Positions 9,994-28,140 of a DNA stretch of 64,000 nucleotides are shown here, piece by piece. The stretch lies in the NCBI GenBank assembly GCA_963932905.1, contig CAWVRN010000003.1:220386-284385 (forward strand), written 5' to 3'. The stretch is from an uncultured Bdellovibrio sp. (GTDB lineage Bacteria; Bdellovibrionota; Bdellovibrionia; Bdellovibrionales; Bdellovibrionaceae). The translations under genes and the position numbers were made by a program. Positions within the stretch are counted from its first letter, which is position 1; every line of letters begins with the position of its first letter. The notes under the pieces are model-generated. The model did not search any database and had not been told where the DNA came from. It saw only the letters and a list, made by a program, of their open reading frames with translations.

Positions 9994-9995
9994 GA

Positions 9996-11609: not shown

Positions 11610-13135
11610 AAAGAGCCCTCCATATTTATCGAGTATTGTCTCTGTTTGGTCGTGTAGGTGTTCGTTGAAATCTTCAACAACTCTGCACCTTTTCTAATAG
11701 ATGTCTCATTCCTGTGGAGTTCTTCAAAAATTCTTCTCTCAAAAATCTCTGTAGCTATCTTGAGGCCTGGGAAATCTGCGTCGATGAAATTAGTTCGCAT
11801 CGTTTGGAGATGAGCAATATTCAAAACTTCATTTCTTTTTAAAGCAACAGGAACAGTGAGACCTATTGTCTTTTTCCATTCCTTAAGGTTTGGGCGACCA
11901 CCTTCATCGTATTTGGTATGAGCAACAAGTCTCTCGACATCGTTTTCTATTCCGCGAATATTTCCCGGGATCTCATCTCTACCAAAATACTCAAGCAAGT
12001 CTTTCGGTAGATCATGAATTTCAATTTGTTTATTTTTGTGTTCAGCACACGCCCTATTGAGAAATCCAGAAATAAGCGCTGGAATATCTTCTTTCCGATC
12101 ACTTAGTTTCGGCATCATAATTTCAAAGATTGAAATACGCATATAGAGATCTTCTCTAAATTTTCCTTCAGCAACTAGCTTCTTCAGATCCTTGTTAGTT
12201 GCAAAAATAAAGCGGGCATTGGTTTTAATAGGACGATTTCCTCCAACTCTATAGTATTCTTTTTCTTCAACTACTTTTAATAATTTGAGTTGAAGTTCAA
12301 GAGAAGCATCCCCTACCTCGTCTAAGAAAATATCGCCATCTCTCGCAACATCCAGAAGGCCCGCCTTTGTCTGTTTTGAAGCATCCGTAAATGCTCCCGG
12401 TTCTGTGCCGAACAGAATGGCTTCGGCCATGTTACGCTCAGTCGCCCCTATATTTAACTGCACAAACTCACGCGCACTCTGTGATTTAGAATCTTTGCTG
12501 AACTCACTCAGTCTTCTTGCCGCCGCACCTTTTCCTAGGCCAGTATCCCCTAGTATAAGCACGGGTCTCGACGTTTCACTCAATGCATTTAATTTTTCGC
12601 TCAATCTTTGCATTACCGGAGACTCACAAACATACGTCGAATAAAGGCCTTTTTTTCCCGGAGAACTATTTTTAGTTTTTGCGAAATCTTCAAAAAAAGA
12701 CATGAATGATTTTTTAATTATTTCTAGTCTTAGTTCAGTAGACGCATCGTCAAATGATTTAAATAGATAATTTGATGCACCTAACTTAATTGCGCGAGCA
12801 ATTTCTCTCGTCGAAACATCTGAAGTTAAAACTAGAAACTGGGATAATGGTTGGATTGATTTCAATTCCACTAGAAAGTCGATACCGTTTAATTTCTTTC
12901 CCTTTTTATCAACTCCCAGATCTTTATCCAACAGTACTAAATGTATCTTACTATCCGCTAAGAGGTCCTTTGCATCGGTCACATTGCTTGCACAAAGGAA
13001 ATTAATTTGGTCAGTACTATTTAAAGTCTTCTCCTCAACCAATTTGGAAAATATTTTTCGGCACATACCTTCTGTTGTGGTCTGCCACATTGGCTCATCA
13101 TCAATAATTAGAACTTGAATATTTTTAGAAATCAC
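11606..13135 (-). CDS. Sigma54-dependent response regulator (REC-AAA+-HTH, NtrC/LuxO-like)
   Basis: IIDDE...LLDKDL...LTS..K receiver; Walker A GDTGLGK; GAFTDA loop; FLDEV; FREDLYMRI; PGNIR; C-terminal HTH. Confidence 0.93.
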   Translation of the reverse strand: MISKNIQVLIIDDEPMWQTTTEGMCRKIFSKLVEEKTLNSTDQINFLCASNVTDAKDLLADSKIHLVLLDKDLGVDKKGKKLNGIDFLVELKSIQPLSQFLVLTSDVSTREIARAIKLGASNYLFKSFDDASTELRLEIIKKSFMSFFEDFAKTKNSSPGKKGLYSTYVCESPVMQRLSEKLNALSETSRPVLILGDTGLGKGAAARRLSEFSKDSKSQSAREFVQLNIGATERNMAEAILFGTEPGAFTDASKQTKAGLLDVARDGDIFLDEVGDASLELQLKLLKVVEEKEYYRVGGNRPIKTNARFIFATNKDLKKLVAEGKFREDLYMRISIFEIMMPKLSDRKEDIPALISGFLNRACAEHKNKQIEIHDLPKDLLEYFGRDEIPGNIRGIENDVERLVAHTKYDEGGRPNLKEWKKTIGLTVPVALKRNEVLNIAHLQTMRTNFIDADFPGLKIATEIFERRIFEELHRNETSIRKGAELLKISTNTYTTKQRQYSINMEGSL

Positions 13136-13200: not shown

Positions 13201-13264
13201 TGTCTCACTCTGTAAAGATTCTATGTCTCAATCTTTGCGTCTCAATGTCTGAGACATTGAGACA
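13201..13264. promoter_or_regulatory. Cluster of GTCTCA / TGAGAC half-sites; candidate activator (enhancer) binding sites
   Basis: TGTCTCA at 13201 and 13224, GTCTCA at 13239, TGAGACA at 13250 and 13258, in the divergent intergenic region. Confidence 0.55.
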
Positions 13265-13354: not shown

Positions 13355-13369
13355 TGGCATGGTACTTGT
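13355..13369 (+). promoter_or_regulatory. Candidate sigma54 (-24/-12) promoter for the transfer operon
   Basis: TGGCATGGTACTTGT = GG-N10-GT (one mismatch to GG-N10-GC), ~60 nt upstream of ATG 13428. Confidence 0.5.
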
Positions 13370-13427
13370 CGTAAAACTATGCCAACACCTTTTCCGAGCT
13401 GAAAAGTGACAATATTTGGGGGTAAAT

Positions 13428-13730
13428 ATGAAAAACAAAATCACGAAAATTGATACTAAGACTAAGGAATTTTTATTCAAAAAGTGTCCTTCATGCCAAA
13501 GCACTGAAATTCTAAAACTCGAAGAAGATACAATTTGCCTAAGCTGCGATTGGAACTCCGCTCAAATGGATGTTACTTCGGGAAACTTCGAGAAGCGCCT
13601 CGCACTTAACGCCTTCGCCGCCAAACAAGAGAAACCAATTCGAGTAAGATCCAAGATTCTGCACCTTGATACTCCGGAATCAGACGCCACTCCAAATCAA
13701 GAGCATTTATCATTAGCGGCCTGTGAGTAA
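13428..13730 (+). CDS. Small zinc-ribbon protein
   Basis: CPSC-x13-CLSC; GGGGG RBS before ATG 13428. Confidence 0.65.
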   Translation: MKNKITKIDTKTKEFLFKKCPSCQSTEILKLEEDTICLSCDWNSAQMDVTSGNFEKRLALNAFAAKQEKPIRVRSKILHLDTPESDATPNQEHLSLAACE

Positions 13731-13733
13731 CTC

Positions 13734-13943
13734 ATGCTGGCTTATATTCTTGAAAATTCAGACGCAACCGATTCTCAAGACGGTTCGATTTTGGTGAATT
13801 CAAAAAATTGGTCATCAGAAGATTGGGAAAACTATTTGAAAACAATTGAATCTGAAAATCCCGAGGAGGAAGTATATGTTGGTACTGCAAACGATCTCGA
13901 AAATTTCGTCGCGTACAAAAAGAACAATTCGAGACTATATTAA
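13734..13943 (+). CDS. Hypothetical acidic protein
   Basis: ORF 3 nt after the previous stop. Confidence 0.5.
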   Translation: MLAYILENSDATDSQDGSILVNSKNWSSEDWENYLKTIESENPEEEVYVGTANDLENFVAYKKNNSRLY

Positions 13944-14073
13944 TGGTTGGATCTCCCATCATTCGATTGAGCATCAATGGAATTCTAGAGAGGCCGTCAC
14001 TAAGTGGAGAAACGGAGACAAAATTAACGTAGCTCTCTAACCGCTCCAATCCAAGCCACTTTTTCAAATTCAA

Positions 14074-14490
14074 ATGAGCAAAGGAATACCTATGACAACT
14101 ATTGATATTAAAAATCGATTTCACGTTTATACCGGCTTCAAAGAAGCGGCTGGAGTGAGGAACGCACTTCAGGCAGGAGAAGCCTACGAGGTTAATTCTC
14201 CTGAAAAACCACACTATATAGTTAAGATGTGGGCGTTTCCAAGAGAGCTGTTCTATTTGGTAGCTAACAAGACAGGAGACGGAAATTTCACTCTGTTTGC
14301 GAAAAAGGTTATCGGAAATGATGTTCCAACTTTTCGCCGCCCAGTCGGATTCGGTTTTGTTTCCAAAGATCTAAAGAGGCATCTTGAAATTCAATTCACG
14401 TTTCCAAGACAGCGAGTATTTATGAGCTTGTTTCCCGATCAGGTAACAATCGACAGTCTTATTTCGGAAAGTGGCGGAGTTGACCTATGA
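14074..14490 (+). CDS. Hypothetical beta-rich basic protein (possibly nucleic-acid binding); start may be 14092
   Basis: AAGGA RBS before ATG 14092; ATGA overlap with the next gene. Confidence 0.6.
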   Translation: MSKGIPMTTIDIKNRFHVYTGFKEAAGVRNALQAGEAYEVNSPEKPHYIVKMWAFPRELFYLVANKTGDGNFTLFAKKVIGNDVPTFRRPVGFGFVSKDLKRHLEIQFTFPRQRVFMSLFPDQVTIDSLISESGGVDL

Positions 14491-14807
14491 GTTCGTTCGG
14501 CAATATTCCCGTAACACTACTATTTCGATGTGATCTTAGAGACACGGCAGCGCTCGTTGGACTTGTTGAAATGAAAAAAAGAATTGGCACCATCGCCTAC
14601 ACTGGCCCCCTAGAGATGAAGAATCTGGATTATATTGGACTTCTTAATTCCTGGCTTCGCCTTCGCGGGCAGCCAATTATTTCGATTCACCCGCATTTAA
14701 AGGTCGAACAACTTGAACGAATAGTAGATCCAATTTCCGAATGGGGTTGGAAAACTTCAGAGTGTGTTGCTGCCATCAACTTAGCCGGACTGCCCTTACC
14801 AAATTAA
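14487..14807 (+). CDS. Hypothetical protein
   Basis: GGAG RBS, coupled ORF. Confidence 0.6.
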   Translation: MSSFGNIPVTLLFRCDLRDTAALVGLVEMKKRIGTIAYTGPLEMKNLDYIGLLNSWLRLRGQPIISIHPHLKVEQLERIVDPISEWGWKTSECVAAINLAGLPLPN

Positions 14808-14825
14808 TTTTTATCAGGAGAAAAA

Positions 14826-15191
14826 ATGGAAAAGAAAATTTCAAACTCGATTAGTGCCTTGTACCTATCCGCTATCGCTACAACTTTGTGGTCGTTTATG
14901 GCTTTCCTTGAAATTCAACAGCTAAATGCTGGATTTGAACTCGAACCATTCACTACCCCATTCACAGCCATTCGTTTCGCATTCGGACCGATCCTATTTG
15001 GAGTTTTAACCTTTTTCGTTGCGCAAGAGCTCAGAAAAAAAACTAAGTGGTCGTGGATTTGCGCAATTGCTCTGTTCGTTTTCAATTCCGTCGGCTTCGC
15101 ATTCGTATTTTCAATTTATGGAATAGTACAATTGTGCGACCAGGAAGTAAGGGAATATTTTCTAAAGCAAATGGACTTTAACCTGAATTAG
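14826..15191 (+). CDS. Small multi-TM membrane protein
   Basis: Three to four hydrophobic segments; AGGAG RBS. Confidence 0.65.
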   Translation: MEKKISNSISALYLSAIATTLWSFMAFLEIQQLNAGFELEPFTTPFTAIRFAFGPILFGVLTFFVAQELRKKTKWSWICAIALFVFNSVGFAFVFSIYGIVQLCDQEVREYFLKQMDFNLN

Positions 15192-15252: not shown

Positions 15253-15534
15253 ATGAAAATGTCCAACGGTTTGTTTGCGATTGTGTTGGCTCTATCGTTG
15301 TTTATGCCACTTACAGGTTTCTGTAGTGTCGAATCCACCCTAGGGACAATTCAATCCAAACTAATAAATCAAATTCTACCACTATGCGCGGTACTGGGAC
15401 TGGTGTTTGCCGCTTTCTCATTTTTTACGGGAAATGCAAATGCTCGGTCCCATCTATGGCTCGCGATTATGGGAATGGTCATTGGTTTCGGTGCGCCTAG
15501 TATTATGACCTTTATTCGCGGCTTAGTTAACTAA
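15253..15534 (+). CDS. virB2: VirB2/TrbC-like conjugative pilin
   Basis: Signal peptide plus two hydrophobic helices ending IIGFGAPSI-like (MVIGFGAPSIM); precedes VirB3/VirB4. Confidence 0.8.
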   Translation: MKMSNGLFAIVLALSLFMPLTGFCSVESTLGTIQSKLINQILPLCAVLGLVFAAFSFFTGNANARSHLWLAIMGMVIGFGAPSIMTFIRGLVN

Positions 15535-15573
15535 ATTCGAAATCTCATTAGCCACTCTACCCTTTTTTGCGGG

Positions 15574-15897
15574 ATGCAAATGCCATTAAAAACGGAACCA
15601 ACTAGCCACAGTTTAGAAAGAAAATTATTAATATTAGGATACGAAGTTCCGGACGTCCTGGCTATTTTTCTGCTACTCTCAATCCTTAATTTTTTATTCG
15701 GATCAACAAACCAAAAATTACTTCTGGTCTGGCTTCCCGTCGTCGTTGTGGCGCTGGTACTAAAAATAGGTAAACGAGGAAAACCAGATAATTATTTAAT
15801 TCATCTTGCAAAATTTCAGTTTAATCCAAAATACCTGTCTGCCTTCAGTGAGCCGTCGAACTCAAAACCTTCACCAAAAATAGGAAAAACAAAATGA
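15574..15897 (+). CDS. VirB3/TraL-like inner-membrane T4SS protein
   Basis: Two TM, SL.R.LLILG motif, GKPDNYL; ATGA overlap with VirB4. Confidence 0.7.
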   Translation: MQMPLKTEPTSHSLERKLLILGYEVPDVLAIFLLLSILNFLFGSTNQKLLLVWLPVVVVALVLKIGKRGKPDNYLIHLAKFQFNPKYLSAFSEPSNSKPSPKIGKTK

Positions 15898-18296
15898 TTT
15901 CTGCATTGGCCGACCATCTTCAAATATGGGGATTCGAAGAAGATGCTATTATCTACACGGACGGCTCGCTTGGTTTTGCTCTAGAAGCCACTCCGGTCGA
16001 CGTATCCACATGGAGTGACGAAAGACTAAATGATCTCTCTATCAATATCCAACAATTCCTAAATGGTCTTTCCCCAAACATCGATATCCAATTTGTTCAG
16101 GACATTCTGCCGGGAAACCAAAAGGTAATTGAACATCATCTTTTATTGGGAAGCGAATCCCACAATGAGGTGGCAAAATCACTGTGCAATGAGAGAGCAC
16201 AGCTACTTAGGAAAGATGATGAACTTGGTTTTTTACCGACTCATCAGCTTAAAGTAATTGTCCGAAAACCCCTTAGTAGTTCCCTTATTTCAACCCCGAA
16301 ACTATTTTCGAAAGAAAACAATTTTCAAGAAATTTCTGAAGCTAGACTTAAAAGCGAAATCGACAGCCTGCTTCGCTTAAGAGATAACATTGTCCAAGGA
16401 TTAACATTACTAGGCGTCACCTGCCGATCATTCACATCCGACGAAATTGCTTCGATACTTTATAAACAGTGGAATCCTTCCCGTCGAATACCATTTCAGT
16501 CCTATGACCCCGAAGAAGTACGGCAAACATTGCTGTATTCAGACGTTGCGATAAGTTTGGCGGGGTTCGCGATTGGTCAGACTCAATTTCGAGTGATTTC
16601 TCTGAAACAACTTCCAGAGCAAACGTACTCGTCGATGGCATCTCAGCTAAGAGAACTTCCCTTTAAATCGCGATTGTATACAACGATACATGTCCCTGAC
16701 CAAATGAAAGAAATCCAAAATTTGCAAACTCAGAGAAGAATCGCGTATTCCATGGCAGTTGGAAAACGCACCGGCGTATCCGACATTGAAAGTTCGGCAA
16801 AGTTCCAAGACCTAGAAACTTTGCTGGAACAAATGATTGCCCAGGGGCAAAAAGTATTTCACGTCTCAACTACAGTTCTTCTTCAAAGCGAAGACGAAAC
16901 GGATCTAGAAAACCAAGTGGATCTTACGCTTTCGAAATTCAGAGAAATGGGAGGAGCCGAAGGACTAACTGAATCACTAGCTAGTTTTGACATTTTTGCG
17001 CAGGTCGCGCTTCCGAACTCGCGCTGTAAAGAGCGGGTCAAAAAAATTAAAACCTCGAACCTTTGTGATTTACTTCCCATTTACGGTCCATGGCCGGGTC
17101 ACAAAAAACCGAGCATTATTTTAAAGTCCCGAATGGGCAACATATTGAGCTTTGATCCGTTTGATCCTTCTCTTTCAAACTTCAACTCACTAGTCAGCGG
17201 AGCCAGCGGAAGTGGAAAGTCAGCGATGACTAATCTCTTACTAATGCAAATGCTTAAAGAAAACGTAAAGGTATTCTTTTGCGACGTAGGCGGCTCGTAC
17301 AAAAAATTAACCGAAAATCTCTCAGGCCAATATGTTGAATTGGGGACAAACGATCATTTAGCAGTGAATCCCTTCGATTTGCTGCCTGGTGAATCGCTAC
17401 CTTCTCCTCAAAAAATCAAATTTCTATTGGGATTGGTCGAATTAATGACTAGAGAGGACGGCTCTGAGCGTATTCCCAAATTAGCTAGATCCGAAATTGA
17501 ATCTGCCATTCAGAAAGTTTATGATACACAAAAGAGCCCTACTTTATCACATCTTCGCACACTACTGCTCGAACACCCTGAGAAGGAAATCAAAAACTAC
17601 GGGAGAATTCTTTCTACTTGGTGTGGCGATACACCCTATGGCCGATTCATCGACAAGCCTACAAACGTTGAATTCCAGAAGGATATAGTCGCGTTTGATT
17701 TGAAGGGCTTAGAAAACTATCCTGATTTGCAGGGAGTATGCCTATACATTATTACCGACCTTGTTTGGCGAGAGGTTCAGAAAGATCGGTCCCGAAAAAA
17801 ATTTATCGTTTTTGACGAATGCTGGAGGCTTCTGCGCGACGATGCCGCAATTCTATTTATTGAAGAAGTTTTTCGGACTGTTAGAAAGTATTATTGTAGT
17901 GCCATCGCAATAAGCCAGGATTTATCGGATTTTCTAAACTCCAAAATTTCGTCAGCGCTACTGCCAAACTGCACTATAAAATGGATACTCACTCAAAACC
18001 AGAGCGACTTTTCAAAAATGAAAGAATCATTAGGATTAAATGATAACGAAATTTCATTGATCCAATCACTTCATCAAAAAAAGGGTGAGTATGCGGAAGC
18101 ATTTCTGGTCGCAGGCGCCGAAAGACGAACTGTCGCTGTTATTGAGCCAACACCGCTTGAACTTTGGATTGCGACGACCGATCCTCGTGATTTGGCTGAA
18201 ATCGAGCAATTTAAGAAAACAGAACCTCAACTAAGCCAACTTGAAATCTTAAAGCATCTAGCCAACAAATTTCCAAGGGGCGTCGCCGCTTCCTAG
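15894..18296 (+). CDS. virB4: VirB4/TraC family conjugative ATPase
   Basis: Walker A GASGSGKS, D.GGSY, NPFD, Walker B FDECW, RKY...ISQ; 800 aa. Confidence 0.92.
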   Translation: MISALADHLQIWGFEEDAIIYTDGSLGFALEATPVDVSTWSDERLNDLSINIQQFLNGLSPNIDIQFVQDILPGNQKVIEHHLLLGSESHNEVAKSLCNERAQLLRKDDELGFLPTHQLKVIVRKPLSSSLISTPKLFSKENNFQEISEARLKSEIDSLLRLRDNIVQGLTLLGVTCRSFTSDEIASILYKQWNPSRRIPFQSYDPEEVRQTLLYSDVAISLAGFAIGQTQFRVISLKQLPEQTYSSMASQLRELPFKSRLYTTIHVPDQMKEIQNLQTQRRIAYSMAVGKRTGVSDIESSAKFQDLETLLEQMIAQGQKVFHVSTTVLLQSEDETDLENQVDLTLSKFREMGGAEGLTESLASFDIFAQVALPNSRCKERVKKIKTSNLCDLLPIYGPWPGHKKPSIILKSRMGNILSFDPFDPSLSNFNSLVSGASGSGKSAMTNLLLMQMLKENVKVFFCDVGGSYKKLTENLSGQYVELGTNDHLAVNPFDLLPGESLPSPQKIKFLLGLVELMTREDGSERIPKLARSEIESAIQKVYDTQKSPTLSHLRTLLLEHPEKEIKNYGRILSTWCGDTPYGRFIDKPTNVEFQKDIVAFDLKGLENYPDLQGVCLYIITDLVWREVQKDRSRKKFIVFDECWRLLRDDAAILFIEEVFRTVRKYYCSAIAISQDLSDFLNSKISSALLPNCTIKWILTQNQSDFSKMKESLGLNDNEISLIQSLHQKKGEYAEAFLVAGAERRTVAVIEPTPLELWIATTDPRDLAEIEQFKKTEPQLSQLEILKHLANKFPRGVAAS

Positions 18297-18306
18297 AGGT
18301 GTAAAG

Positions 18307-18993
18307 ATGAAAAAAATCATAATTCCAATTTTTGTTATAGCGCTGTGTGGCTCGAAACCGGCCAAAGCTAGCATGTTCGGAGAGGAAAACGCTGTATTAG
18401 CCCAAATCCTAGCAAATGCAGTCCAACAGTTAACTCAGCTCAGAAATATTCTTCAGACCGAGCGAGACAACGTAAACCTTATCCGTGATCTTAATCGAGG
18501 TATCAACGACTCGCTATATTTGATGAAAACAATTAGTCCGAATTCGAATCCAGGAATATATAAGGATTGGGAGAAAGTATCAGACGCCATTTACAAACTA
18601 GAGTCTATTTACGGAGTTGCAGTTGAATCTCGAGATCGAAAAGTACAAAACGATACTGATCAAAGTATTGCCGAAGCTGTTTCGATGAATAATACCATTT
18701 ATAAGTATACAAAAGAAATAGATGAAATCGGCGAACGGATCAAAAATTACAGCCATTCAGTTTCTCCCGGTGGGGCAGCTAAACTGACCGCCCAGTCAAT
18801 GGGTGTAATGATCAATCTCCAAAACGAAATGTTAAGGACTCAAGCTTCAGGCCTAAAGCTACAAGCTCAATCGCTTGCAATCCAGAATCGTAAAGACAAA
18901 GAGAGAACTCGGCAAATGCTAGCTAGCGCTGAAGGACTAAATACAGCCCTTCAATCCGCTAAGCCTCAATTTAAACTTCCCAAATTTGAATAG
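18307..18993 (+). CDS. VirB5/TrbJ-like secreted helical T4SS protein
   Basis: Signal peptide, Gln-rich coiled coils, position between VirB4 and VirB6. Confidence 0.6.
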   Translation: MKKIIIPIFVIALCGSKPAKASMFGEENAVLAQILANAVQQLTQLRNILQTERDNVNLIRDLNRGINDSLYLMKTISPNSNPGIYKDWEKVSDAIYKLESIYGVAVESRDRKVQNDTDQSIAEAVSMNNTIYKYTKEIDEIGERIKNYSHSVSPGGAAKLTAQSMGVMINLQNEMLRTQASGLKLQAQSLAIQNRKDKERTRQMLASAEGLNTALQSAKPQFKLPKFE

Positions 18994-19001
18994 AGAATTT
19001 T

Positions 19002-19961
19002 ATGGACATTAGTTGGATATCATCTCAGGCAAAAGAAATTCACGATTTTTTCGTTCAGATATTCTATTCACTAGCAGTATTGCTCATCTTGGTTGGAGTA
19101 ATTCTAGATTATTTCAAATTACCTATTGGAGGAGTGCCTTCTTTTGCAGTTTTAGTTGGCCGAGCACTAGTGGCGTCGATTTTACTTATCGCCTATCCTC
19201 AGATTTCCAATTGGGTTTCCACAATCGCCGACGCGGTTGCCGATCATCTTGGAAGTGCAAATCATTACTCAAAAGTCCTCGATGCTGCTGGGGAAACATT
19301 AATGAATCACTCCTGGTCTTGGACATCTATTGGTGACACAGTACTATCAGTCGCGGCAATGGCCTCTTACGGGATCTTGTTCCTTTCAGTGTATTTTTTC
19401 GACGCCGCTATAATTTACTGCCTCGTTCTTTTATACATTTTCTCTCCGTTACTAATTGCTTTCTACATTTTGCCGCAAACAGCCAGTATGACCACAGGAG
19501 CTTTTCGAACGCTATTTGAAATCGCTGCCTGGAAAATTGTCTTTGCCGTAATGGGCACACTCCTTTGGAGTACAGCGCTGAATAGTTTTGAGCAAAAAGG
19601 CCAAAACTTTATCACTCTCCTCGCACTAACCTTAATGTTAGCTTTCTCAATTCTCCTCACTCCTATAGTTGTAAAAAACTTAATATCAGGAGCGATTTCA
19701 AATATTGCAACTCAAACGGCCGGGCTCGCGGCAATGGGAATAACGGCTGGATATGCGTCTCCCGCAGTTTTGGCTGGGCTTGCAAAAAAAGGCTCTGGGA
19801 ATGCGTACAAATTTGGTTACAGACTGACTAAAGAAAAATTTAATCAATTTCGATCATCCTCAGATGAAAATAAGAAAAAACCAAAAGAGTATTCCAGAAC
19901 GATTAAGGCGAAGAAAACTTCCGCCGCTACTTCTAAACCTAAACCTGCGGAGTCAAAATGA
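19002..19961 (+). CDS. VirB6/TrbL-like polytopic membrane protein
   Basis: Five to six TM with the SPLLIAFYILP segment and a Gly/Ala-rich tail. Confidence 0.75.
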   Translation: MDISWISSQAKEIHDFFVQIFYSLAVLLILVGVILDYFKLPIGGVPSFAVLVGRALVASILLIAYPQISNWVSTIADAVADHLGSANHYSKVLDAAGETLMNHSWSWTSIGDTVLSVAAMASYGILFLSVYFFDAAIIYCLVLLYIFSPLLIAFYILPQTASMTTGAFRTLFEIAAWKIVFAVMGTLLWSTALNSFEQKGQNFITLLALTLMLAFSILLTPIVVKNLISGAISNIATQTAGLAAMGITAGYASPAVLAGLAKKGSGNAYKFGYRLTKEKFNQFRSSSDENKKKPKEYSRTIKAKKTSAATSKPKPAESK

Positions 19962-20503
19962 AGTTTACTACAGCATGGGCAAATATCGCATCACAAAACA
20001 TCTCACTTAAACTTGCGACCGTCACCCTTGCGGTAACAAGTATTGTACAACTTATTGCTATAATTAATTTCACATCTAAGGATCTGCCGGTTATCGAAAG
20101 AGGATGTTTCTCCAGAGCAATTATCGCGAAACCCCTTGAAAACGGCAAAAACGAAATTGAATCGTTTTTAGCTGAAGCCCTACCTATGCGCTTTGATACC
20201 CACTCCTACATCCGTGACGGTTTCCTTTCGCTGGAACAGCTCACCATTCGAGAAAAAGAGCTGTCCTCCTTAAAACAGAAAGAGATCTCCCAAAAATTAA
20301 TTATTAGTGAAATCAAGAGTGACACCAAAGAAATCACGGTCAGGGCAGATAGATTAATGTCAGTGGGAAAGATTAAATCGGTATTGCCAATTCAGCTTAC
20401 CATCGCTCTACAAAAAACTAACAGGACAGAGTCCAATCCATACGGTCTAGTTCTAAGCTCGGTTACGCAGGTAGAAATCAACGACAAAGATAACAGTCGA
20501 TAA
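19958..20503 (+). CDS. VirB8/TraE/TraK-like bitopic T4SS protein
   Basis: Single N-terminal TM; C-terminal RT..NPYGL motif characteristic of VirB8 folds. Confidence 0.75.
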   Translation: MKFTTAWANIASQNISLKLATVTLAVTSIVQLIAIINFTSKDLPVIERGCFSRAIIAKPLENGKNEIESFLAEALPMRFDTHSYIRDGFLSLEQLTIREKELSSLKQKEISQKLIISEIKSDTKEITVRADRLMSVGKIKSVLPIQLTIALQKTNRTESNPYGLVLSSVTQVEINDKDNSR

Positions 20504-20544
20504 CAAATCATAAGAGACACAAATTTCAAAAGCTTGGACAAAAA

Positions 20545-20913
20545 ATGAAATACTTGTGTTTCTTTGCAATGCCTCTGTTTTCTATGAATTTGTATGCAGA
20601 AAGCGTTAAAACCATAAAACTCTGCGAGAAAAGCGTCGCAAACATTTCCATTTCTTCAAAAGGTACGGTGCTGGATTTCCCGTCCGAGCCGGAAAAGATT
20701 GTCTTGGGTACAAAGAACTCCTTTTCCATCGAATATATCAGGAATGACCTTGCGATTTCTCCAAGTGCTATCGGATCGGCTTCCAATCTGTTTGTATACC
20801 TGCAAGGTAGACGATTTGTACTAAACCTCTCGACTTCTCAGGGTGGTACAACTTTATACTTCATTAAAGACTGTGACGATGACAGAAGAGTGGTAAAAAA
20901 AAATGGAAAATAA
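20545..20913 (+). CDS. Short VirB9/TrbG-like protein
   Basis: Signal peptide; GTVLDFP.EPEKIVLG...SNLFVY...RFVLNL pattern. Confidence 0.65.
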   Translation: MKYLCFFAMPLFSMNLYAESVKTIKLCEKSVANISISSKGTVLDFPSEPEKIVLGTKNSFSIEYIRNDLAISPSAIGSASNLFVYLQGRRFVLNLSTSQGGTTLYFIKDCDDDRRVVKKNGK

Positions 20914-21784
20914 TAATGTTGAGTTGGTTGCAGAACCAAAAATCGAATCAAGATTCGGATTCGGGCAAAAAACGAGCTATGCTAAAAGCAGAACGGCGAA
21001 AATCGGCGCCGCAGTTAGCTTGGTTTCAATAATTTCCGTTTTCTTATTTGATAGTCCCACACCCGTAGCTATCAAAGAAGAAGGAATCCTAATACCCGAC
21101 TCTAGTCAAATTACATCTAGCTATAATACTCTTGATATAGAAACCTACTCCCCCGTAAAGGAGTCGATCAATCAAGACAAAAATAAAAAAATTGCAAGTA
21201 CGACCAAAGCGAGAAATTTCCCCGGCTTGCAAAGAATTGAACGCAAAAGGATTGGCAGTGTCCCGCCTGGTACAATAATTAGAGCGAGGCTAATTACTGG
21301 TGCATCAAATGGTTTAGTTCGAGCTGAAACTCTCGAAGCCATAAGAATTCTAGGAGAAACCTATCTTCCTTCAAATACCACATTGCTTGGAGTCGGCCAG
21401 TCTGGCGAAGAACGATTGACAGTGAAATTCACTAAAGCCGTTTTTAGGGATGGAAACGTTCAGTCAATCGAGGCACAGGCCGCTGACATGGAAGATCAAA
21501 CTGTCGGACTCACTGGTTCAAAAGTCGGAAAGTACGCGACAAAATATGCTTCGGCTGTCGGATTAAATTTTGTTGGCGGAATGGCTGAAGGCCTTCAAGA
21601 CCGAGAAATCGTTGGACAACAAGTCCTTACAAAACCAAATGCGAAAAATGCCTTGCTCAATGGAGCAAGCAAAGCGGCACTTGAAATGGCAAACGAAACT
21701 ATGTCGGATTTGAAAAATTCAAATCCCGCAATTCAAGTTCCCGCCGGGCAAGAAATTTTAGTGCTGTTTGAAGACAAAAACTAA
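20903..21784 (+). CDS. VirB10/TrbI/TraM-like core-complex protein
   Basis: N-terminal TM; VPPGTIIRARLITG, LPSNTTLLG, GLTG, IQVPAGQEILVLF. Confidence 0.8.
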   Translation: MENNNVELVAEPKIESRFGFGQKTSYAKSRTAKIGAAVSLVSIISVFLFDSPTPVAIKEEGILIPDSSQITSSYNTLDIETYSPVKESINQDKNKKIASTTKARNFPGLQRIERKRIGSVPPGTIIRARLITGASNGLVRAETLEAIRILGETYLPSNTTLLGVGQSGEERLTVKFTKAVFRDGNVQSIEAQAADMEDQTVGLTGSKVGKYATKYASAVGLNFVGGMAEGLQDREIVGQQVLTKPNAKNALLNGASKAALEMANETMSDLKNSNPAIQVPAGQEILVLFEDKN

Positions 21785-21839
21785 ACTCTCATTAAAAAAA
21801 GATTCTTAATAAGTCACTACCTTAAAAAAAGCGGTAAAT

Positions 21840-23309
21840 ATGCAAAATTCAAATGGATTCGATAAGGCGCCAATAATTATTGAAACCATATTTAAATTTA
21901 TTTCGACTCCTTCAAAAGAGATGTTCTACGGAATTAAATCTAGAACAATTCCATGGACCTTTTGCTCAGCTTGGGCCGGAATATTTGGTCTCATACTTTT
22001 TTTTAAAATTGATCACTACTTTTTTCAATATATGCCATTTAGAAAACTGTACCCCTATCATCCAATTCTCTATAAAATATATTGTTTTTCACTGGTGACA
22101 TTCTCATTTTGGCTCTGGTCTTTAAATCAAGCTCGGCTGAAAAAACAAAAACTTTCTACGCTGACGGCCGCATTCAAAAGCGCAGGACTAGTTTCAAAAA
22201 TCGGACGTCTGCCAAACTTAGTTTCAGATTACCCCATCGATGGAACAACCAGAAAGATGCGCCTAACAAACGCAGGATTTCCCGTCGCAAGTTTTAAAGA
22301 TCAGTCTCGGTTTGTCGAAAGCGAACTGGGAATTTTTATCGATGAAGTAAGAGAAGATCGCGAAACTCGAACTGTAGATTACATCTATTCGCATTTTCCT
22401 ATCCCTTCGGAAATTATCTACACTCCCGATTTGGCGTCAAAGACTTACGAATTTCCAGTTGGTCAAACACGTGCAAATACCATTACTGCCAATTTGAAAT
22501 CCTGTCCTCATCTTTTGGTTGCGGGACAAACTGGAGGAGGAAAATCGACTTTCTTAAGACAGGTAATTGTTCATTTAGCTATTCAAAATAAAAACACTCA
22601 TTTTCTGCTGATTGATTTGAAAGGCGGCCTGGAATTCTCGCTCTTTGAAAATCGAAAACAGTTTGAGGTTGTTCCCAGTGTTAAGGTGGCGATCGCGCAC
22701 CTACACAAGATCGAAGCCAAAATTAATCAGAGACTTGAATTCTTAAAAGTTCAGGACTGTAAAGATGTCGATGCTTACTATTCTAAAGCTAACAAACCCA
22801 AAGAATCTATCGACCTCAATAGATTCGTGGTTGTGATTGACGAAGCAGCAGAAATGTTTTTGGCTGGGCACCACGCAAAGGCAAATGAAATTCAGCAAGC
22901 TCGAGCCGTTTTGAGTAAAATTGCACGACAAGGTCGAGCCCTGGGAATTCACCTAATCGTTGCGACCCAAAGACCCGATGTCAAATCCCTTGACCCTCAG
23001 GTGAAAGCAAATCTCGTTGGCGTAATATGTTTTCAGATGATGAACGACGCTTCCAGTATTGCGGTGCTAGGAAATGGTAGAGCTACCGACCTTCCTAAAG
23101 TACCGGGCCGCGCAATTTGGAAAAACGGCGCGGACATGATTGAAGTACAAACGCCGTATCTGGCACCCGAGCTTTTAGATAGCTTAATTGGAAAACCTGA
23201 CAACACTTCGAAATCAAAAGAGGCAGCTAACGAGGTTTCAAAATACTCAAATGAAGAGGTAACTGCCGAAATCGAACCGCTACACGATAGCTCAAACCCG
23301 AAGGGATAG
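21840..23309 (+). CDS. FtsK/SpoIIIE-family ATPase (TcpA-like coupling protein)
   Basis: Two N-terminal TM; PHLLVAGQTGGGKS, IDLKGG.E, VVIDEAA, GRALGIHLIVATQRP, GRAI. Confidence 0.9.
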   Translation: MQNSNGFDKAPIIIETIFKFISTPSKEMFYGIKSRTIPWTFCSAWAGIFGLILFFKIDHYFFQYMPFRKLYPYHPILYKIYCFSLVTFSFWLWSLNQARLKKQKLSTLTAAFKSAGLVSKIGRLPNLVSDYPIDGTTRKMRLTNAGFPVASFKDQSRFVESELGIFIDEVREDRETRTVDYIYSHFPIPSEIIYTPDLASKTYEFPVGQTRANTITANLKSCPHLLVAGQTGGGKSTFLRQVIVHLAIQNKNTHFLLIDLKGGLEFSLFENRKQFEVVPSVKVAIAHLHKIEAKINQRLEFLKVQDCKDVDAYYSKANKPKESIDLNRFVVVIDEAAEMFLAGHHAKANEIQQARAVLSKIARQGRALGIHLIVATQRPDVKSLDPQVKANLVGVICFQMMNDASSIAVLGNGRATDLPKVPGRAIWKNGADMIEVQTPYLAPELLDSLIGKPDNTSKSKEAANEVSKYSNEEVTAEIEPLHDSSNPKG

Positions 23310-23311
23310 GC

Positions 23312-24181
23312 ATGAAAGAAAACATACTTATAACCGAACGAGATTTTTTGATTCTGAAATATTTATGGAAATGGAAACTACTTTCCACCAAAGCAATTTC
23401 TATTAAATTTTTTCCGAATTCAAATGATGATACTGCTTACAAGCGAATGATGCTTTTAACGAAAGCTGGTTACCTGAAGCCCCGTTATGTGAATGACGAA
23501 AGTCCTCGGGGACAAATTCGTCAACAAGTATGGGGCTTGAATCGCAAAGGATTTCATCGTATTCTTCAATATCTAGGCGAATTAAAAATCAAGGGATACT
23601 TCTCTTCTAATTCCACTCATGATTACTTGGCAACATCTCTTCATCTTGGCGAATGGCTACTAAGACAGCCGCCAGATAGTCAAACATGGAGCGAGCAAGA
23701 GTTAAATTCGATTCCAACAGAACTGTGGCCGAACTGGGTTCCCAAATCAGACCTTCACCGCCCCGACGGTTTTACTGCATTCAACTATAAGAATCGTCGA
23801 CACGTACTTGCTTTTGAAGTCGAACTACATGTCAAATCTTCAGCGAGGTACGAGGCAATTGCCGCCTATTACGATAGCTGTGAGGAAATCAATCACGTTA
23901 TCTGGCTGGTGAAATCAATTGGAAATTACAAGTCCATCAAAAAACATCTTAACAAGCACGGACTTAGAAATACGGATAAGCACCGATTTCTCAGTCTTAA
24001 AGAGTTTGAAAAACACGGTTGGAATTCTAATTTCATAGATTGTGCAAACGTCACTTTGAAACTTCAAGACCTAATAATAACTCTACCTCCGACAACGCCC
24101 CGACAAAGCCCTCCCGGCCTTCTGACTCTAGACATGTTAAACGCCCGGAAAAGACCAAAAATTACAAGAACTTGCAAATAA
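23312..24181 (+). CDS. Replication-relaxation (Replic_Relax-like) protein: wHTH plus PD-(D/E)XK domain; candidate relaxase
   Basis: ITERD..IL..L N-terminus, H(D)Y motif, RPDG...AFEVEL..KS..RY; directly after the FtsK ATPase. Confidence 0.7.
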   Translation: MKENILITERDFLILKYLWKWKLLSTKAISIKFFPNSNDDTAYKRMMLLTKAGYLKPRYVNDESPRGQIRQQVWGLNRKGFHRILQYLGELKIKGYFSSNSTHDYLATSLHLGEWLLRQPPDSQTWSEQELNSIPTELWPNWVPKSDLHRPDGFTAFNYKNRRHVLAFEVELHVKSSARYEAIAAYYDSCEEINHVIWLVKSIGNYKSIKKHLNKHGLRNTDKHRFLSLKEFEKHGWNSNFIDCANVTLKLQDLIITLPPTTPRQSPPGLLTLDMLNARKRPKITRTCK

Positions 24182-24343
24182 TCAAAATTTCCAAATTGTC
24201 CTGCCCTATATAACTCATCCTTTCGTCTTCGTACTCAATCAAATCAATCCTCATCAAATCTCTCGATACTATTTCCAAAATCACTTCACCCTAATCAAAA
24301 AAGAAGAATTGGAGACACTAAACTAAAAAAGAAAGGAATTTGA

Positions 24344-24742
24344 ATGTTAGAAAAAAAAGAAATTGCGGCTCTCATGATACTACCTCTGATACTGAACGCA
24401 TGCTCAACAGCTCCTAAATCAATGTTAACCGGGGCAATTGCCGGAGGCGTCGTCGGAGCTGGGGTTGGTCAGGCTCACTCTCAAAATTCCGGAGGAACCG
24501 CAGTCGGAGCAGTTGTCGGTATGGGCCTGGGTTCACTGATTGGATACCTCTCACACAAAGATAAAATAAAAACCCAAGAGCCTAAAGTTCTTGGTGATAA
24601 ACCAATTGAAGAGTGGTCCCCCTCGATAACAAAACCAAAGATCCGATCTTACATGGTTCCAGACACAATTGATGGGAACAAGTACATTAAAGGCCATCGA
24701 GTGTTCGTTCTCGAAAGCCCTGGCGAATGGTCTAAGGACTAA
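24344..24742 (+). CDS. Glycine-zipper lipoprotein with TraV-like C-terminus
   Basis: Lipobox LNAC, GxxxG zipper, P.IR..VPD..DG...GH.V.V...PG.W tail. Confidence 0.65.
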   Translation: MLEKKEIAALMILPLILNACSTAPKSMLTGAIAGGVVGAGVGQAHSQNSGGTAVGAVVGMGLGSLIGYLSHKDKIKTQEPKVLGDKPIEEWSPSITKPKIRSYMVPDTIDGNKYIKGHRVFVLESPGEWSKD

Positions 24743-24785: not shown

Positions 24786-26084
24786 GTGAACTTTACCATT
24801 CTCAACGGCGATTCTCGTGAAGTGCTGAGATCACTACCACCTATTTCTGTAGATTCTCTTTTAACGGACCCTCCTGCAGGCATCGGTCTTAGAGGTCTAT
24901 CATGGGATTCTAGTAACGGCGGAAGACAACAATGGATTTCATCGATGACTGAAATTTTCGCCGAATGTTTCCGGGTTTTAAAACCGGGAGCACATGGCTT
25001 CATCTGGGCAATACCTCGTACATCGCATTGGACAGCCACTGCTCTCGAGGATTCTGGTTTCCAGGTTCGAGATGTCGTTACCCATATATTCGGCAGTGGC
25101 TTTCCAAAAAGCATTGCCATCGATAAATCCATTCAAAGATCAAAATATTTAGACACCGAGGATCTCTATAAAGCGACAGATTGGATTCGTAAAAGAAGAG
25201 ACCAACTAAAATTAACGAATCGTACAATGGATGAAGTCGCTGGCGTTACAGGTGGGGCATGTCATTGGACCGCACTTCCTCCAAATGGAAATCCTCACGT
25301 GCCGACTTACGAAAGGTGGATCAAACTTCGTCCCCTGCTCGGTCCCGCACCAGAGTGGCTAGAAGAAATGATAAAACCCAGTTGGGTCGAACCAGAAAAT
25401 TGGAACCTCGGAAAATTAACAACCCGAAATAACTCCGTCTCAGAAAAATGGAAAGGCTGGGGAACTTCGCTGAAACCAGCGAGTGAGCATTGGATTTTAG
25501 TTCAAAAACCAATATCCGAACACAACATAGCCGCGAATGTTCTCAGGTATGGAGTTGGTGGTATTAACATTGACGACGCTAGAACACCAGTAAACGGCAA
25601 AATTCCATCTACCTCAAATTTGAATTTTAAGAATGGCGGTTTAATTTGGGAGACCTCTGAACGTAGCAAAACTTCCGTCTATCACCAACACCCAAAGGGC
25701 CGATTTCCTTCCAACCTTCTCATTACGAAATCGAACGAAGGTATTTGTCCGACGAAGCTCATTGACGACCAAGGAGAACGTGAAGTCGAAGTTTCCAATT
25801 ACTTTAAGCTTTTTTCTCCCGAGGTTCCTTTCTTCTATTCAAAGAAGGCTAATCAAACTGAAAAGGAGATCTTCAACACGCACCCGACAGTGAAACCAAT
25901 TAGACTAATGCGCTATCTCGCTAAAATAATTACGCCACCAAACGGGACGATTTTAGATCCCTTTATGGGATCTGGAACAACTGGTATGGCCGCCATAAAA
26001 GACAACTTTAAATTTATAGGTATCGAAAAAGACGAATCGTACTTTCAAATCGCAAAGCAGAGACTAGAAGGAGAGAGTAAATGA
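24786..26084 (+). CDS. Orphan beta-class amino (N4-C/N6-A) DNA methyltransferase with an internal HTH-like insertion
   Basis: DPPA motif IV, RVLKPG, GSGFPK, LKPA.E, HPTVKP, DPFMGSGTTG; no cognate endonuclease adjacent. Confidence 0.88.
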   Translation: MNFTILNGDSREVLRSLPPISVDSLLTDPPAGIGLRGLSWDSSNGGRQQWISSMTEIFAECFRVLKPGAHGFIWAIPRTSHWTATALEDSGFQVRDVVTHIFGSGFPKSIAIDKSIQRSKYLDTEDLYKATDWIRKRRDQLKLTNRTMDEVAGVTGGACHWTALPPNGNPHVPTYERWIKLRPLLGPAPEWLEEMIKPSWVEPENWNLGKLTTRNNSVSEKWKGWGTSLKPASEHWILVQKPISEHNIAANVLRYGVGGINIDDARTPVNGKIPSTSNLNFKNGGLIWETSERSKTSVYHQHPKGRFPSNLLITKSNEGICPTKLIDDQGEREVEVSNYFKLFSPEVPFFYSKKANQTEKEIFNTHPTVKPIRLMRYLAKIITPPNGTILDPFMGSGTTGMAAIKDNFKFIGIEKDESYFQIAKQRLEGESK

Positions 26085-26437
26085 GTGACGCAAATGAGCC
26101 CATTGAAAAGGAAAAAAATAGCAGATGCCACATATCACTCTCTGAAATTTCAGTAAGAAAGATCGATGGATGGTATGACCAAATCAACTCCAAAAAGCGA
26201 ATAAAAATTCCCAGAAAAGATTTCGTAAATTGGATCATAGAGGGAAAACCAGACAATTTACCTAATAGCGAAATCAACGCAATCATCGAACATTTCTACG
26301 ACGAAGAGAAATTCCTTAAACAGCTTTTAGTAGATATTAGAAAGGCCAAGTCTACTGGAATTTCTGAAAATTTAGAAGTAATTGTGCGCCCCAAAAAGTC
26401 CGAAATCAGGAAAGAAAACAGCGATTCAACGGCATAA
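26081..26437 (+). CDS. Hypothetical protein (possible regulator or directionality factor upstream of the integrase)
   Basis: ATGA overlap with the MTase; role inferred from position only. Confidence 0.55.
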   Translation: MSDANEPIEKEKNSRCHISLSEISVRKIDGWYDQINSKKRIKIPRKDFVNWIIEGKPDNLPNSEINAIIEHFYDEEKFLKQLLVDIRKAKSTGISENLEVIVRPKKSEIRKENSDSTA

Positions 26438-26534
26438 ATCCGCATGTGCATTTGCACGTATGATTTCATCGAAAAAGCTCGACTTACTTTCAAGTGGAGC
26501 TATTTGTACAGATAACTTAACAGTGAGTTTCAGA

Positions 26535-27821
26535 ATGGAATCGAAAAATAAAACCGGTATTAAGGGCTTAACAGAAAGATGGAGATCCCATCAATTTCAT
26601 GACTCTTATCAAGTGGGAAACTCGTCCGTAAAACCTACCAAGTGGATTTCCCCCAAAGACCATTTGACTGCAAATCAAATTGACAAGTACTTGAAAAACA
26701 AAAAATTGAGAAAAGAATCCGCGCTAGAAGACCAAGAATTTTTGACTTTAAGAAGCAGAATTTTATCAGAATTGACTTCAGAGTTCGGATTTAAGATATA
26801 TAAAATTCAAGAAAAACTAAATTTAGAAACTAAGAAGTATAATTTTGAAGAATCCGTCGACCTGTTTGTGAACTTCAAATCTGACACCAGTGTTCCAATG
26901 AAACACAAATCAATCCTCCAAAACGTCTGGCTGCCTTTCTATTTAGAAAAAGGCTGCGAGCATCCTAGGGAGTTTCGGCTTTGGAAAAAGCATGCTCAAA
27001 TACACCTAAAGACTGTCAAAAAATTGAATTCAAACGAAAAATACTCAGTGAACAGTCTTAGTACCCTCACAAATACTCACAATGAGTATATGACGTTTTT
27101 GTTGGACAATGATGACATCACTGAAGCGGAACATTTCAAGATTTTTGGACGAATAACTACAGAGATGAAAAAACGAGGACTCTCGTCAGTATCAAGAAAA
27201 AAAGATACTTATACTGAAGAAGACTTACTTTCGATTAAATTAAAAATAGACAAAAGATACTCCGGAGACCTCCGTATGAAAGCGCGAGCTTACGCTATCT
27301 ATTTTGGCGTATGCACCGGCCTTAGGAGAGGCAACCTGCTAGGTTTACGTATTAAGAATCTCCGTCCTAACGGTGACGTTCCTCATTTTGAAACGTGTGA
27401 CAACATCGTACCAGGATGGAGTCGCGGCATAAAAGGAACTGTCATTTTAGAAAATAGCACAAAGACATTTGTGGGCACGATAAAATTGCCCTTCGTTCAA
27501 CCCTCTAGAGAAATACTTTGTGAAGTAACCAAATTCCTAATCGAATACTGCAAACCTAACGATAGACTTCTAAATTGTAGTCCTCGAACTGTTGCAGACT
27601 GGTGGTCAGAAATTGCAAAAGATTGCGGGTTTAAATATTTAACTCCCCATGACTGGAAACATTCTTATGCAACAATAGGCGCATTACATTTGAAAGATTG
27701 GTATGATCGAAATCCGTACCTTTTGCAGATGTGCTGCTTACACCAGAAATATGAAACCACTCTTCAATATATAAATCAGAAGTCAGATCCATTCCTGGCT
27801 TCATTTAAACGAGCCGATTAG
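26535..27821 (+). CDS. Tyrosine recombinase / integrase (track start 26382; ATG 26535 preferred)
   Basis: TGLRRG (Arg I), K in NSTK, HDWKH box, LH..YETT.QY catalytic Tyr; next to a tRNA 3' end. Confidence 0.85.
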   Translation: MESKNKTGIKGLTERWRSHQFHDSYQVGNSSVKPTKWISPKDHLTANQIDKYLKNKKLRKESALEDQEFLTLRSRILSELTSEFGFKIYKIQEKLNLETKKYNFEESVDLFVNFKSDTSVPMKHKSILQNVWLPFYLEKGCEHPREFRLWKKHAQIHLKTVKKLNSNEKYSVNSLSTLTNTHNEYMTFLLDNDDITEAEHFKIFGRITTEMKKRGLSSVSRKKDTYTEEDLLSIKLKIDKRYSGDLRMKARAYAIYFGVCTGLRRGNLLGLRIKNLRPNGDVPHFETCDNIVPGWSRGIKGTVILENSTKTFVGTIKLPFVQPSREILCEVTKFLIEYCKPNDRLLNCSPRTVADWWSEIAKDCGFKYLTPHDWKHSYATIGALHLKDWYDRNPYLLQMCCLHQKYETTLQYINQKSDPFLASFKRAD

Positions 27822-28064: not shown

Positions 28065-28140
28065 TGGTGCGAATAACTGGACTTGAACCAGTGACCTCTT
28101 CCATGTCAAGGAAGCGCGCTACCAACTACGCTATATCCGC
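28065..28140 (-). tRNA. tRNA-Val(GAC)
   Basis: GCGGATATAGCGTAGTTGGTAGCGCGCTTCCTTGACATGGAAGAGGTCACTGGTTCAAGTCCAGTTATTCGCACCA: 76-nt cloverleaf, anticodon GAC, GGTTCAA T-loop, encoded CCA. Confidence 0.97.

Follow-up and report, generated by a model that had tools for sequence, protein, structure and literature searches.

A putative FtsK/TcpA-type coupling protein and a MOBC-like protein in the diderm-type transfer module of a Bdellovibrio integrative element

The DNA analysed here (the window) is a 64,000 bp stretch, positions 220,386 to 284,385 of contig CAWVRN010000003.1 (below C3), from assembly GCA_963932905.1 (below G000) of an uncultured Bdellovibrio sp. Positions 15253-24742 of the window hold eleven intact, closely packed open reading frames (ORFs), all on the + strand, and each lies where an earlier note on this DNA had placed it (Table 1). 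We conclude that this region is probably the DNA-transfer module of a ~54.5-kb integrative and conjugative element (ICE) that sits at the 3' end of a tRNA-Val gene in a Bdellovibrio-like bacterium. What appears to be new in it is a putative coupling protein of the FtsK/TcpA type in a diderm channel, together with the pairing of that ATPase with a MOBC-like protein, a pairing that has previously been described only in parts and in other bacteria. The earlier note called the module hybrid and minimal; the mix of genes is real, but the module is not self-contained, being the transfer part of an element that reaches 26 kb past the window.

The ends of the element were located as follows: the 3' 60 nt of the tRNA-Val(GAC) gene (attR, Table 1) have a perfect direct repeat at C3:193999-194058 (attL), 54.45 kb to the left of attR and outside the window, so that the element occupies C3:193999-248509, with a tyrosine recombinase gene at one end and the type IV secretion system (T4SS) genes inside. 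Within the window itself no second copy of the tRNA 3' end was found, and an upstream search for attachment (att) sites in the window and 14 related loci gave only 9-11-nt matches, which is chance level; an 11-nt att-like match at 3503-3513 lies inside an efflux gene and was likewise taken as chance. The element is probably active, a view of its function that draws on conservation as well as on homology and position. Four metagenomes from four studies (two of activated sludge, one of groundwater and one of an aquatic sample) contain contigs with at least 99% identity to window positions 9500-28091; the metagenome bin at 28756-29400 is without cover, which proves nothing.

Knowing the true ends allowed the whole 54.5-kb element to be searched for a canonical type IV coupling protein, VirB11, and a MOBP, MOBF, MOBQ or HUH relaxase by family searches, Pfam and tblastn (the Pfam scan of the cargo took in most ORFs of at least 100 aa), and none was found. 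The lack of VirD4, VirB11 and HUH relaxase that the earlier note described therefore holds for the window and for the entire element, and no canonical relaxase or coupling protein turned up in its remaining parts. A family search of the whole genome matched VirD4-type proteins (PF02534, PF10412) on contigs C1, C12, C16 and C22 only, the relaxase family PF03432 on C16 only, and T2SSE/VirB11 (PF00437) only on contigs other than C3; TrwC and MobA_MobL had no match anywhere in the genome. When the genome's own VirB11, its three VirD4-type proteins and its MOBP relaxase were used as tblastn queries, nothing was found in the element at E<=1e-2, nor in 49 related loci (up to 10 kb around) at E<=1e-3.

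The putative coupling ATPase and its place in the module

The ATPase encoded directly after VirB10 has one FtsK/SpoIIIE motor domain, in which the Walker A and B motifs are both intact (G229-S236 and D334/E335, invariant in 13 diverse sequences), and two N-terminal hydrophobic stretches (approximately residues 40-57 and 76-96), which we recognized by eye in its translated sequence. When PDB was searched with a profile of the ATPase family, 15 distinct sequences scored at E<=0.001; the pCW3 TcpA constructs were at the top (7.7e-46, 160 bits, residues 116-444), FtsK was second (1.5e-26, 96 bits, residues 213-418) and YukB/EssC/EccC followed, and there was no TrwB or VirD4 among the 15. Its best match among 72,556 plasmids is on C. 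perfringens pCPF4969 (29.5% identity over 94% of the query), and since the matched gene directly follows tcpM it is TcpA. These matches bear out the earlier claim that an FtsK/SpoIIIE ATPase stands in place of VirD4. A tree of 21 rows sets the ATPase apart from the VirD4-type proteins of this genome with 100% support by the Shimodaira-Hasegawa-like approximate likelihood ratio test (SH-aLRT). We call it FtsK/TcpA-like by build and best match, and the 21-row tree leaves membership of the TcpA clade open. Its putative role as the coupling protein of the module rests on its position, because in sibling modules of the same genome a VirD4-type protein fills exactly that place.

Six full modules of this gene order are present in the 4.55-Mb genome, two on C1, two on C3 (including the present one) and one each on C12 and C22. 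The five siblings share with it the order pilin-VirB3-B4-B5-B6-B8-B9-B10, coupling ATPase, Mob-like protein, glycine-zipper lipoprotein (24-49% identity), and differ from it in having a full-length VirB9 (236-272 aa); three carry a VirD4-type coupling protein and two a divergent FtsK-type ATPase. Pfam was run on L100, L101 and L103; the description of L102 and L104 comes from genome-search and tblastn matches. The gene after VirB10 encodes a VirD4-type protein in L100 (C1:522-537 kb) and L101 (C12) (TraG-D_C 5e-11 and 2.3e-12), with a Mob-like protein and a serine recombinase nearby, and L102 (C22) has the same order with a T4SS-DNA_transf match after VirB10. In L103 (C1:351-366 kb) VirB10 is followed by a second, divergent FtsK-type ATPase and then by a 247-aa protein that passes the Pfam Replic_Relax threshold (25.5 bits), a glycine-zipper lipoprotein and a tyrosine integrase; L104 (C3:44-59 kb) shows the same match pattern. 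Module remnants were seen on C11, on C45 and at the start of C1, those on C11 and C45 consisting only of ATPase, Mob, lipoprotein and sometimes methylase genes, and contig C16 holds a T4SS that is unrelated to these and has VirB11, VirD4 and a MOBP relaxase. Just past the serine recombinase of L101 (L101:14969-15868, G000:C12) there is a gene for an MbnB/TglH/ChrH-type enzyme that modifies ribosomally synthesized and post-translationally modified peptides (8.8e-61).

Does the ATPase belong to this T4SS, or has it only been carried into it? A family scan with one genome per species returned 80 loci, of which L010-L058 are 49 Bdellovibrionota-type loci from 49 species-level genomes (assigned by record label, with a few oddly labelled metagenome-assembled genomes (MAGs) among them) with full-length or contig-cut relatives of the ATPase at 38-96% identity, and L059-L089 are 31 Bacillota loci in which the relationship (29-40% identity) covers the motor domain only. 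Gene order through VirB10 and the ATPase is the same in 25 of the 25 loci that reach VirB4. The family of the 289-aa protein encoded next comes directly after the ATPase in 48 of the 49 Bdellovibrionota-type loci, the 49th ending inside the ATPase gene, and in none of the 31 Bacillota loci. One alternative explanation is that a mobilization cassette, consisting of the ATPase and the 289-aa protein, has been captured and works in trans, and that the T4SS has lost its VirD4 and depends on the VirD4-type siblings. Three such siblings are indeed present in this genome, the C11 and C45 remnants are without channel genes, and cassettes of TcpA plus relaxase are known in integrative and mobilizable elements (IMEs) (PMC5357655, partial text). 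Nevertheless, the ATPase gene directly follows that of VirB10 in one co-directional array in every VirB4-holding locus, across many genomes, and tblastn searches reaching up to 10 kb around the 49 loci found no VirD4 homologue; this indicates a stable linkage and not a recent capture, and we consider the cassette explanation improbable.

The family to which the module belongs is large: the ATPase family comprises at least 120 clusters at 90% identity that are 45-98% identical to the present ATPase. A tRNA or tmRNA gene is near the module in 18 of the 49 loci, with at least 13 different identities, which is a signature of integrating elements with varied integrases. These data point to a widespread and apparently active ICE family of Bdellovibrionota. 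Four loci (L015, L017, L050 and L054) are on MAG contigs labelled Chlamydiae, Streptomyces griseus, Curtissbacteria and Elusimicrobiota, labels that are more likely to be binning or labelling errors than true hosts. The Bacillota FtsK-type proteins, which are the closest relatives that the scan gave outside Bdellovibrionota, are on Bacillaceae/Paenibacillaceae chromosomes and one plasmid, and form a clade of their own.

The position of such an ATPase in a diderm channel departs from what has been described. According to the partial texts of three papers, TcpA homologues are found only in Firmicutes (PMC3548315), the TcpA family is limited to a subset of the mating-pair formation (MPF) class MPF_FA and VirD4-type coupling proteins serve all Gram-negative T4SSs (PMC12857230), and the MobC relaxases of streptococcal IMEs have VirD4 as their partner and in no case TcpA (PMC5357655). 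A literature search that covered few subscription papers found no account of the present family, no conjugative T4SS of Bdellovibrio and no FtsK/TcpA-type coupling protein in a Gram-negative T4SS. The closest parallel is the Tcp locus of pCW3, whose ATPase likewise has a single FtsK-type motor (~490-540 aa in all) and an N-terminal membrane anchor, for which the hydrophobic stretches read by eye may be the counterpart here, and whose ATPase gene is also beside a DNA-processing gene, with no VirD4. pCW3, however, has a monoderm MPF_FA system without VirB9/VirB10, unlike the diderm-type channel found here, and its relaxase TcpM resembles a tyrosine recombinase (PMC12857230, partial text), whereas the partner here is a winged helix-turn-helix (wHTH) plus nuclease-like protein. 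The Tn916/ICEBs1 family and Streptomyces TraB also replace VirD4 by an FtsK-superfamily ATPase (PMC3548315, partial text); they differ in having monoderm hosts, MOBT Rep_trans relaxases (none for TraB) and no outer-membrane core.

The 289-aa protein and DNA processing

The earlier note took the 289-aa protein for a Replic_Relax protein. Its wHTH is well defined, and the remote NCBIfam MobC_subf match (Table 1) and matches at the level of the family support the relationship, but the protein itself falls under the curated thresholds and is better described as a distant MOBC relative. An exhaustive search (clusters at 50% identity) gave 501 representatives of its family at E<=1e-3, and among 61 aligned members Replic_Relax was matched by 17 (best 4.6e-6) and MobC_subf by 38 (best 1.3e-9). 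A tblastn search of the plasmids with the protein gave no match at E<=0.01.

The AlphaFold2 model of the protein has a mean confidence (pLDDT) of 92.5, and its residues 4-93 match MarR/PadR-type winged helices (Z 9-10.2; Foldseek probability 1.00). Because the wHTH matches swamped the full-length fold search, the C-terminal part was folded alone (pLDDT 90.2). The top seven Foldseek rows for this domain are all type II restriction enzymes (FokI, BstEII, PaqCI), at E values of 9e-3 or more, and the top 27 rows of a VIA search, which is independent of Foldseek, are mostly restriction or CRISPR-ancillary nucleases (Z 5.1-7.1; they include SdaI, BspD6I nickase subunits, BsaWI, Can2 and NgoMIV), which we take to be PD-(D/E)XK nucleases. 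Residues H103, D104, E128, D152, G153 and E169 are invariant in the family, and E171 and K175 are at least 90% conserved; by our own reading their placement would be on those strands where a PD-(D/E)XK site is expected.

MOBC relaxases are already known in Gram-negative bacteria. Like MobC of CloDF13 and TraX of pAD1, the 289-aa protein has an N-terminal winged helix, followed by what may be a restriction-endonuclease-like domain, and is encoded beside the gene of the (here putative) coupling protein; unlike them, it lies far under the curated cut-offs and has a partner of the FtsK/TcpA type. We therefore regard it as a protein that probably works like a MOBC relaxase and do not file it as a MOBC member at the curated thresholds.

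Could the tyrosine recombinase instead be the real DNA-processing enzyme, comparable to TcpM, with the 289-aa protein serving as a regulator, a replication protein or a restriction-like nuclease? TcpA's partner on pCW3 is a tyrosine-recombinase-like relaxase (PMC12857230, partial text), the integrase of the present element is atypical (its Phage_integrase match is only 8e-4), and the 289-aa protein is, as just said, under the curated MOBC thresholds. However, homologues of this integrase were found in only 3 of the 49 loci (L010, L011 and L019), against the 48 in which the 289-aa family follows the ATPase, and the Mob-like family is likewise present in the VirD4-type siblings, whose recombinases are of the serine type. 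We thus give this explanation little chance and retain the 289-aa protein as the candidate relaxase.

The channel and how the module might work

The pilin, VirB3, VirB4, VirB5, VirB6, VirB8 and VirB10 named in the earlier note all stand, through family matches or through homology to sibling proteins. The pilin is conserved at 55-79% identity in 24 loci, and the VirB3/TraL-like gene keeps its place between the pilin and VirB4 genes in related loci. The best-scoring model for VirB4 is F-type TraC, and its NCBIfam scores are under the curated equivalog cut-offs (TIGR02746, 297.6 bits versus 567; VirB4_CagE, 207.7 versus 643). A quick tree places the VirB4 proteins of the module's family in one group (24 rows, 81% support) and those of the VirD4-type siblings in another (100%). 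None of the 24 family members of the 181-aa VirB8-like ORF directly matches the relevant Pfam family; its family profile aligns with the sibling proteins at the same position with hhalign probabilities of 97.1% and 97.4% over 161-165 columns, and those sibling proteins match TraE (3.9e-8) and VirB8 (1.4e-5).

VirB9 is as short as the earlier note said and consists of the N-terminal domain only. Its own CagX match has an E value of 0.043 (positions 34-90 of 198), CagX/VirB9 is matched by 12 of 24 family members (best 1.1e-4) and always over the N-terminal part, and its length is 119-171 aa in all 33 related loci that hold VirB9, versus the 236-272 aa of the sibling modules. The VirB8-like and VirB9-like family profiles gave no useful match in PDB. 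The lipoprotein encoded last has a lipobox-like signal (read by eye) and a position that is kept in related loci; the earlier label "TraV-like" had to be dropped, as the Pfam and NCBIfam scans match glycine-zipper families only, and the protein is possibly a VirB7-like outer-membrane partner.

As the earlier note suspected, the module does not fit cleanly into a described MPF class. VirB4 is under every curated NCBIfam cut-off, and its identity to plasmid VirB4s is at most 26% (26.3% to its closest plasmid homologue, which is on Myxococcus pYRE beside a VirD4-type protein). The order VirB2-3-4-5-6-8-9-10 is that of MPF_T (VirB/Trw/pKM101-type) systems, from which the module differs in having no VirB1, in-place VirB7, VirB11 or VirD4 (there is no PF00437, PF02534 or PF10412 match on the contig) and no VirB9 of full length, the C-terminal domain being missing. 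Genes specific to F-type systems are traW, U, N, F, H and G, and Pfam and NCBIfam scans of the module found none of these families, which sets it apart from MPF_F.

The missing VirB11 and the missing C-terminal domain of VirB9 could also be taken, in a lineage of predatory hosts, as signs that this T4SS is a contact-dependent device of the predator for protein delivery or adhesion, or else a decayed, non-functional remnant. But all ORFs are intact and their catalytic motifs conserved, integrases, att repeats and tRNA sites go together with the module, which always includes a DNA-binding nuclease-like protein and an ATPase of the DNA-translocase type, and the short VirB9 is kept in 33 loci and so is not a one-off lesion. 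We consider both variants very improbable, and DNA transfer remains our preferred reading of the module.

If it does transfer DNA, the following course can be proposed: the sigma-54 activator encoded upstream would turn on the operon and the integrase would cut the element out; the 289-aa protein would bind an origin of transfer (oriT) by its winged helix and, in the manner of MOBC relaxases, cut it hydrolytically by its PD-(D/E)XK-like domain; and a hexamer of the FtsK/TcpA-like ATPase would act as coupling protein, feeding the DNA into the VirB4-powered channel.

Several observations weigh against this account. The 289-aa protein matches Pfam Replic_Relax (PF13814) only at E 0.044 (14.3 bits, under the threshold of 25.3) and MobC_subf at 24.3 bits against a curated cut-off of 200, and its nuclease-like domain has only moderate structural matches (Foldseek E>=9e-3; VIA Z<=7.1, where the bar is 8). 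The absence of MOBH, MOBV, MOBT and MOBB relaxases rests on general Pfam scans of the ORFs. No clear inverted repeat is present in the Mob-lipoprotein or VirB10-ATPase spacers, and an inverted-repeat scan gave only the upstream palindrome (Table 1) and a terminator, so no oriT was located. The ATPase tree does not settle the order of TcpA, chromosomal FtsK, the Bacillaceae clade and the two Bdellovibrio-type clades, and in it TcpA is joined to chromosomal FtsK by long branches; nor does the quick VirB4 tree settle the deep order of the three sibling lineages. With VirB11 missing and VirB9 short, the channel could work in some other way or not at all. Finally, none of the metagenome contigs over the region has a joint at the element ends.

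A bolder proposal, which we put forward only as a speculation with the odds well against it, is that the family is a Gram-negative conjugative clade that dispenses with VirD4, with VirB11 and with an HUH relaxase that pilots the DNA covalently, in which a restriction-like nuclease cuts the DNA hydrolytically and an FtsK-like pump drives it, possibly as double strands as proposed for TcpA, through a two-membrane T4SS without the VirB9 C-terminal domain. If true, T4SS channels would accept motors of both the FtsK and the VirD4 branch, each exchangeable for the other as a cassette. Apart from this speculation, the family as read above would break, in a large clade, the rule that TcpA is confined to Firmicutes and that VirD4 serves the Gram-negatives. 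The parallel modules of one genome, which differ in coupling-motor type, are a natural swap, and they raise the questions of what a coupling protein needs for docking on VirB10/VirB4 and whether an FtsK-like, possibly double-strand pump can feed a diderm T4SS.

Regulation, cargo and surroundings of the element

Table 1. Features of the window (positions count from its first nucleotide)
Feature	Position	Strand	Basis or remark
RND (resistance-nodulation-division) efflux pump, ICE cargo: AcrB-family C-terminal part, small Gly-rich protein, outer-membrane factor	2..3522	-	ACR_tran 1.9e-154, OEP 4.2e-24
Sensor/regulator block: histidine kinase, solute-binding protein, small ORF, radical-SAM enzyme, small ORF, sigma-54 activator	6827..13135	-	Pfam
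Sigma-54 activator	11606..13135	-	
Perfect palindrome 12+1+12 (25 nt) ahead of transfer operon	13239..13263	+	inverted-repeat scan
-24/-12-like sigma-54 promoter element ahead of operon	13355..13369	+	read by eye
Four small leader ORFs (104, 138, 106, 121 aa)	13416..15191	+	no family matches
VirB2/TrbC-type pilin, 93 aa	15253..15534	+	TrbC/VirB2 PF04956 E 5.4e-6
VirB3/TraL-like small membrane protein, 107 aa	15574..15897	+	weak: DUF3487 3.6e-4, TIGR03750 1.9e-4, TraL 6e-3
VirB4/TraC ATPase, 800 aa	15894..18296	+	TIGR02746 (TraC-F-type) 1.5e-88, TIGR00929 (VirB4_CagE) 2.9e-61, P-loop_TraG 1.5e-40
VirB5-like protein, 228 aa	18307..18993	+	TIGR02791 6.2e-5, residues 75-197
VirB6/TrbL-like polytopic membrane protein, 319 aa	19002..19961	+	PF04610 4e-4
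VirB8/TraE-like protein, 181 aa	19958..20503	+	homology to sibling-module proteins
VirB9 cut down to signal peptide and N-terminal domain, 122 aa	20545..20913	+	CagX
VirB10/TrbI, 293 aa	20903..21784	+	PF03743 2.2e-19
FtsK/TcpA-like ATPase, putative coupling protein, 489 aa	21840..23309	+	FtsK_SpoIIIE PF01580 2.5e-23
wHTH and PD-(D/E)XK-like protein, putative MOBC-like relaxase, 289 aa	23312..24181	+	MobC_subf NF041423 1.6e-5, positions 16-207 of 240
Glycine-zipper lipoprotein, 132 aa	24344..24742	+	Gly-zipper_Omp 1.7e-6
N6/N4 DNA methyltransferase, 432 aa	24786..26084	+	PF01555 1e-29
Conserved 118-aa ORF	26081..26437	+	no family match; overlaps integrase start
Divergent tyrosine recombinase (integrase)	26382..27821	+	Phage_integrase 8e-4, residues 305-465; adjoins attR
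tRNA-Val(GAC)	28065..28140	-	ARAGORN; its 3' 60 nt (28065-28124) are attR

Because a divergent sigma-54 activator gene, a perfect palindrome and a -24/-12-like element precede the operon, the sequence suggests that conjugation is under sigma-54-dependent control. Of 25 related VirB4-holding loci, 10 (L011, L014, L016, L028, L033, L034, L046, L047, L049 and L051) likewise have a sigma-54 activator gene upstream in the opposite orientation. L014, a locus of another genome with another tRNA gene close by, also encodes a solute-binding protein with 60% identity just upstream of the module, beyond the activator. The 138-aa leader ORF is kept ahead of the pilin gene, with tblastn homologues in 19 loci. 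On the other side of the module, homologues of the 118-aa ORF come after the lipoprotein or the methylase in about 30 loci; that it is an excisionase or a regulator is our guess.

The cargo to the left of the module includes copper and other metal genes (two heavy-metal P-type ATPases, MerR regulators, a multicopper oxidase, CusF, a cupredoxin, PCuAC and SCO1), arsenic genes of the ArsC/ArsH/ACR3 type, DsbA/DsbB and the RND efflux pump, whose gene runs on to the left of the window and sits within the 60-bp repeats. Its copper and arsenic resistance genes would provide a selectable marker, and they would show the spread of metal resistance among predatory bacteria. The cargo also contains, at C3:207241-207316, a further tRNA-Val(GAC) gene that differs from the one at attR.

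An 18-kb stretch of cargo and sensor block (C3:212170-230192, which takes in window positions 1-9807) is 97.9% identical to contig C47 of a second genome, G001, from another species of the same genus. The chromosomal protein that flanks this stretch in G001 is only 77% identical, and nothing in the G001 assembly closely matches the T4SS module (at best 69-77%, over short stretches); the cargo thus seems to move between different backbones.

To the left of the element a degenerate third copy of the tRNA-Val 3' end is present at C3:181692, and the 12.3 kb from there to attL appear to form another, older island stacked at the same site. In relatives of other genera the counterparts of the C3:154-156.6 kb genes are only ~5 kb from tRNA-Val, which fits a stack of insertions at this tRNA gene.

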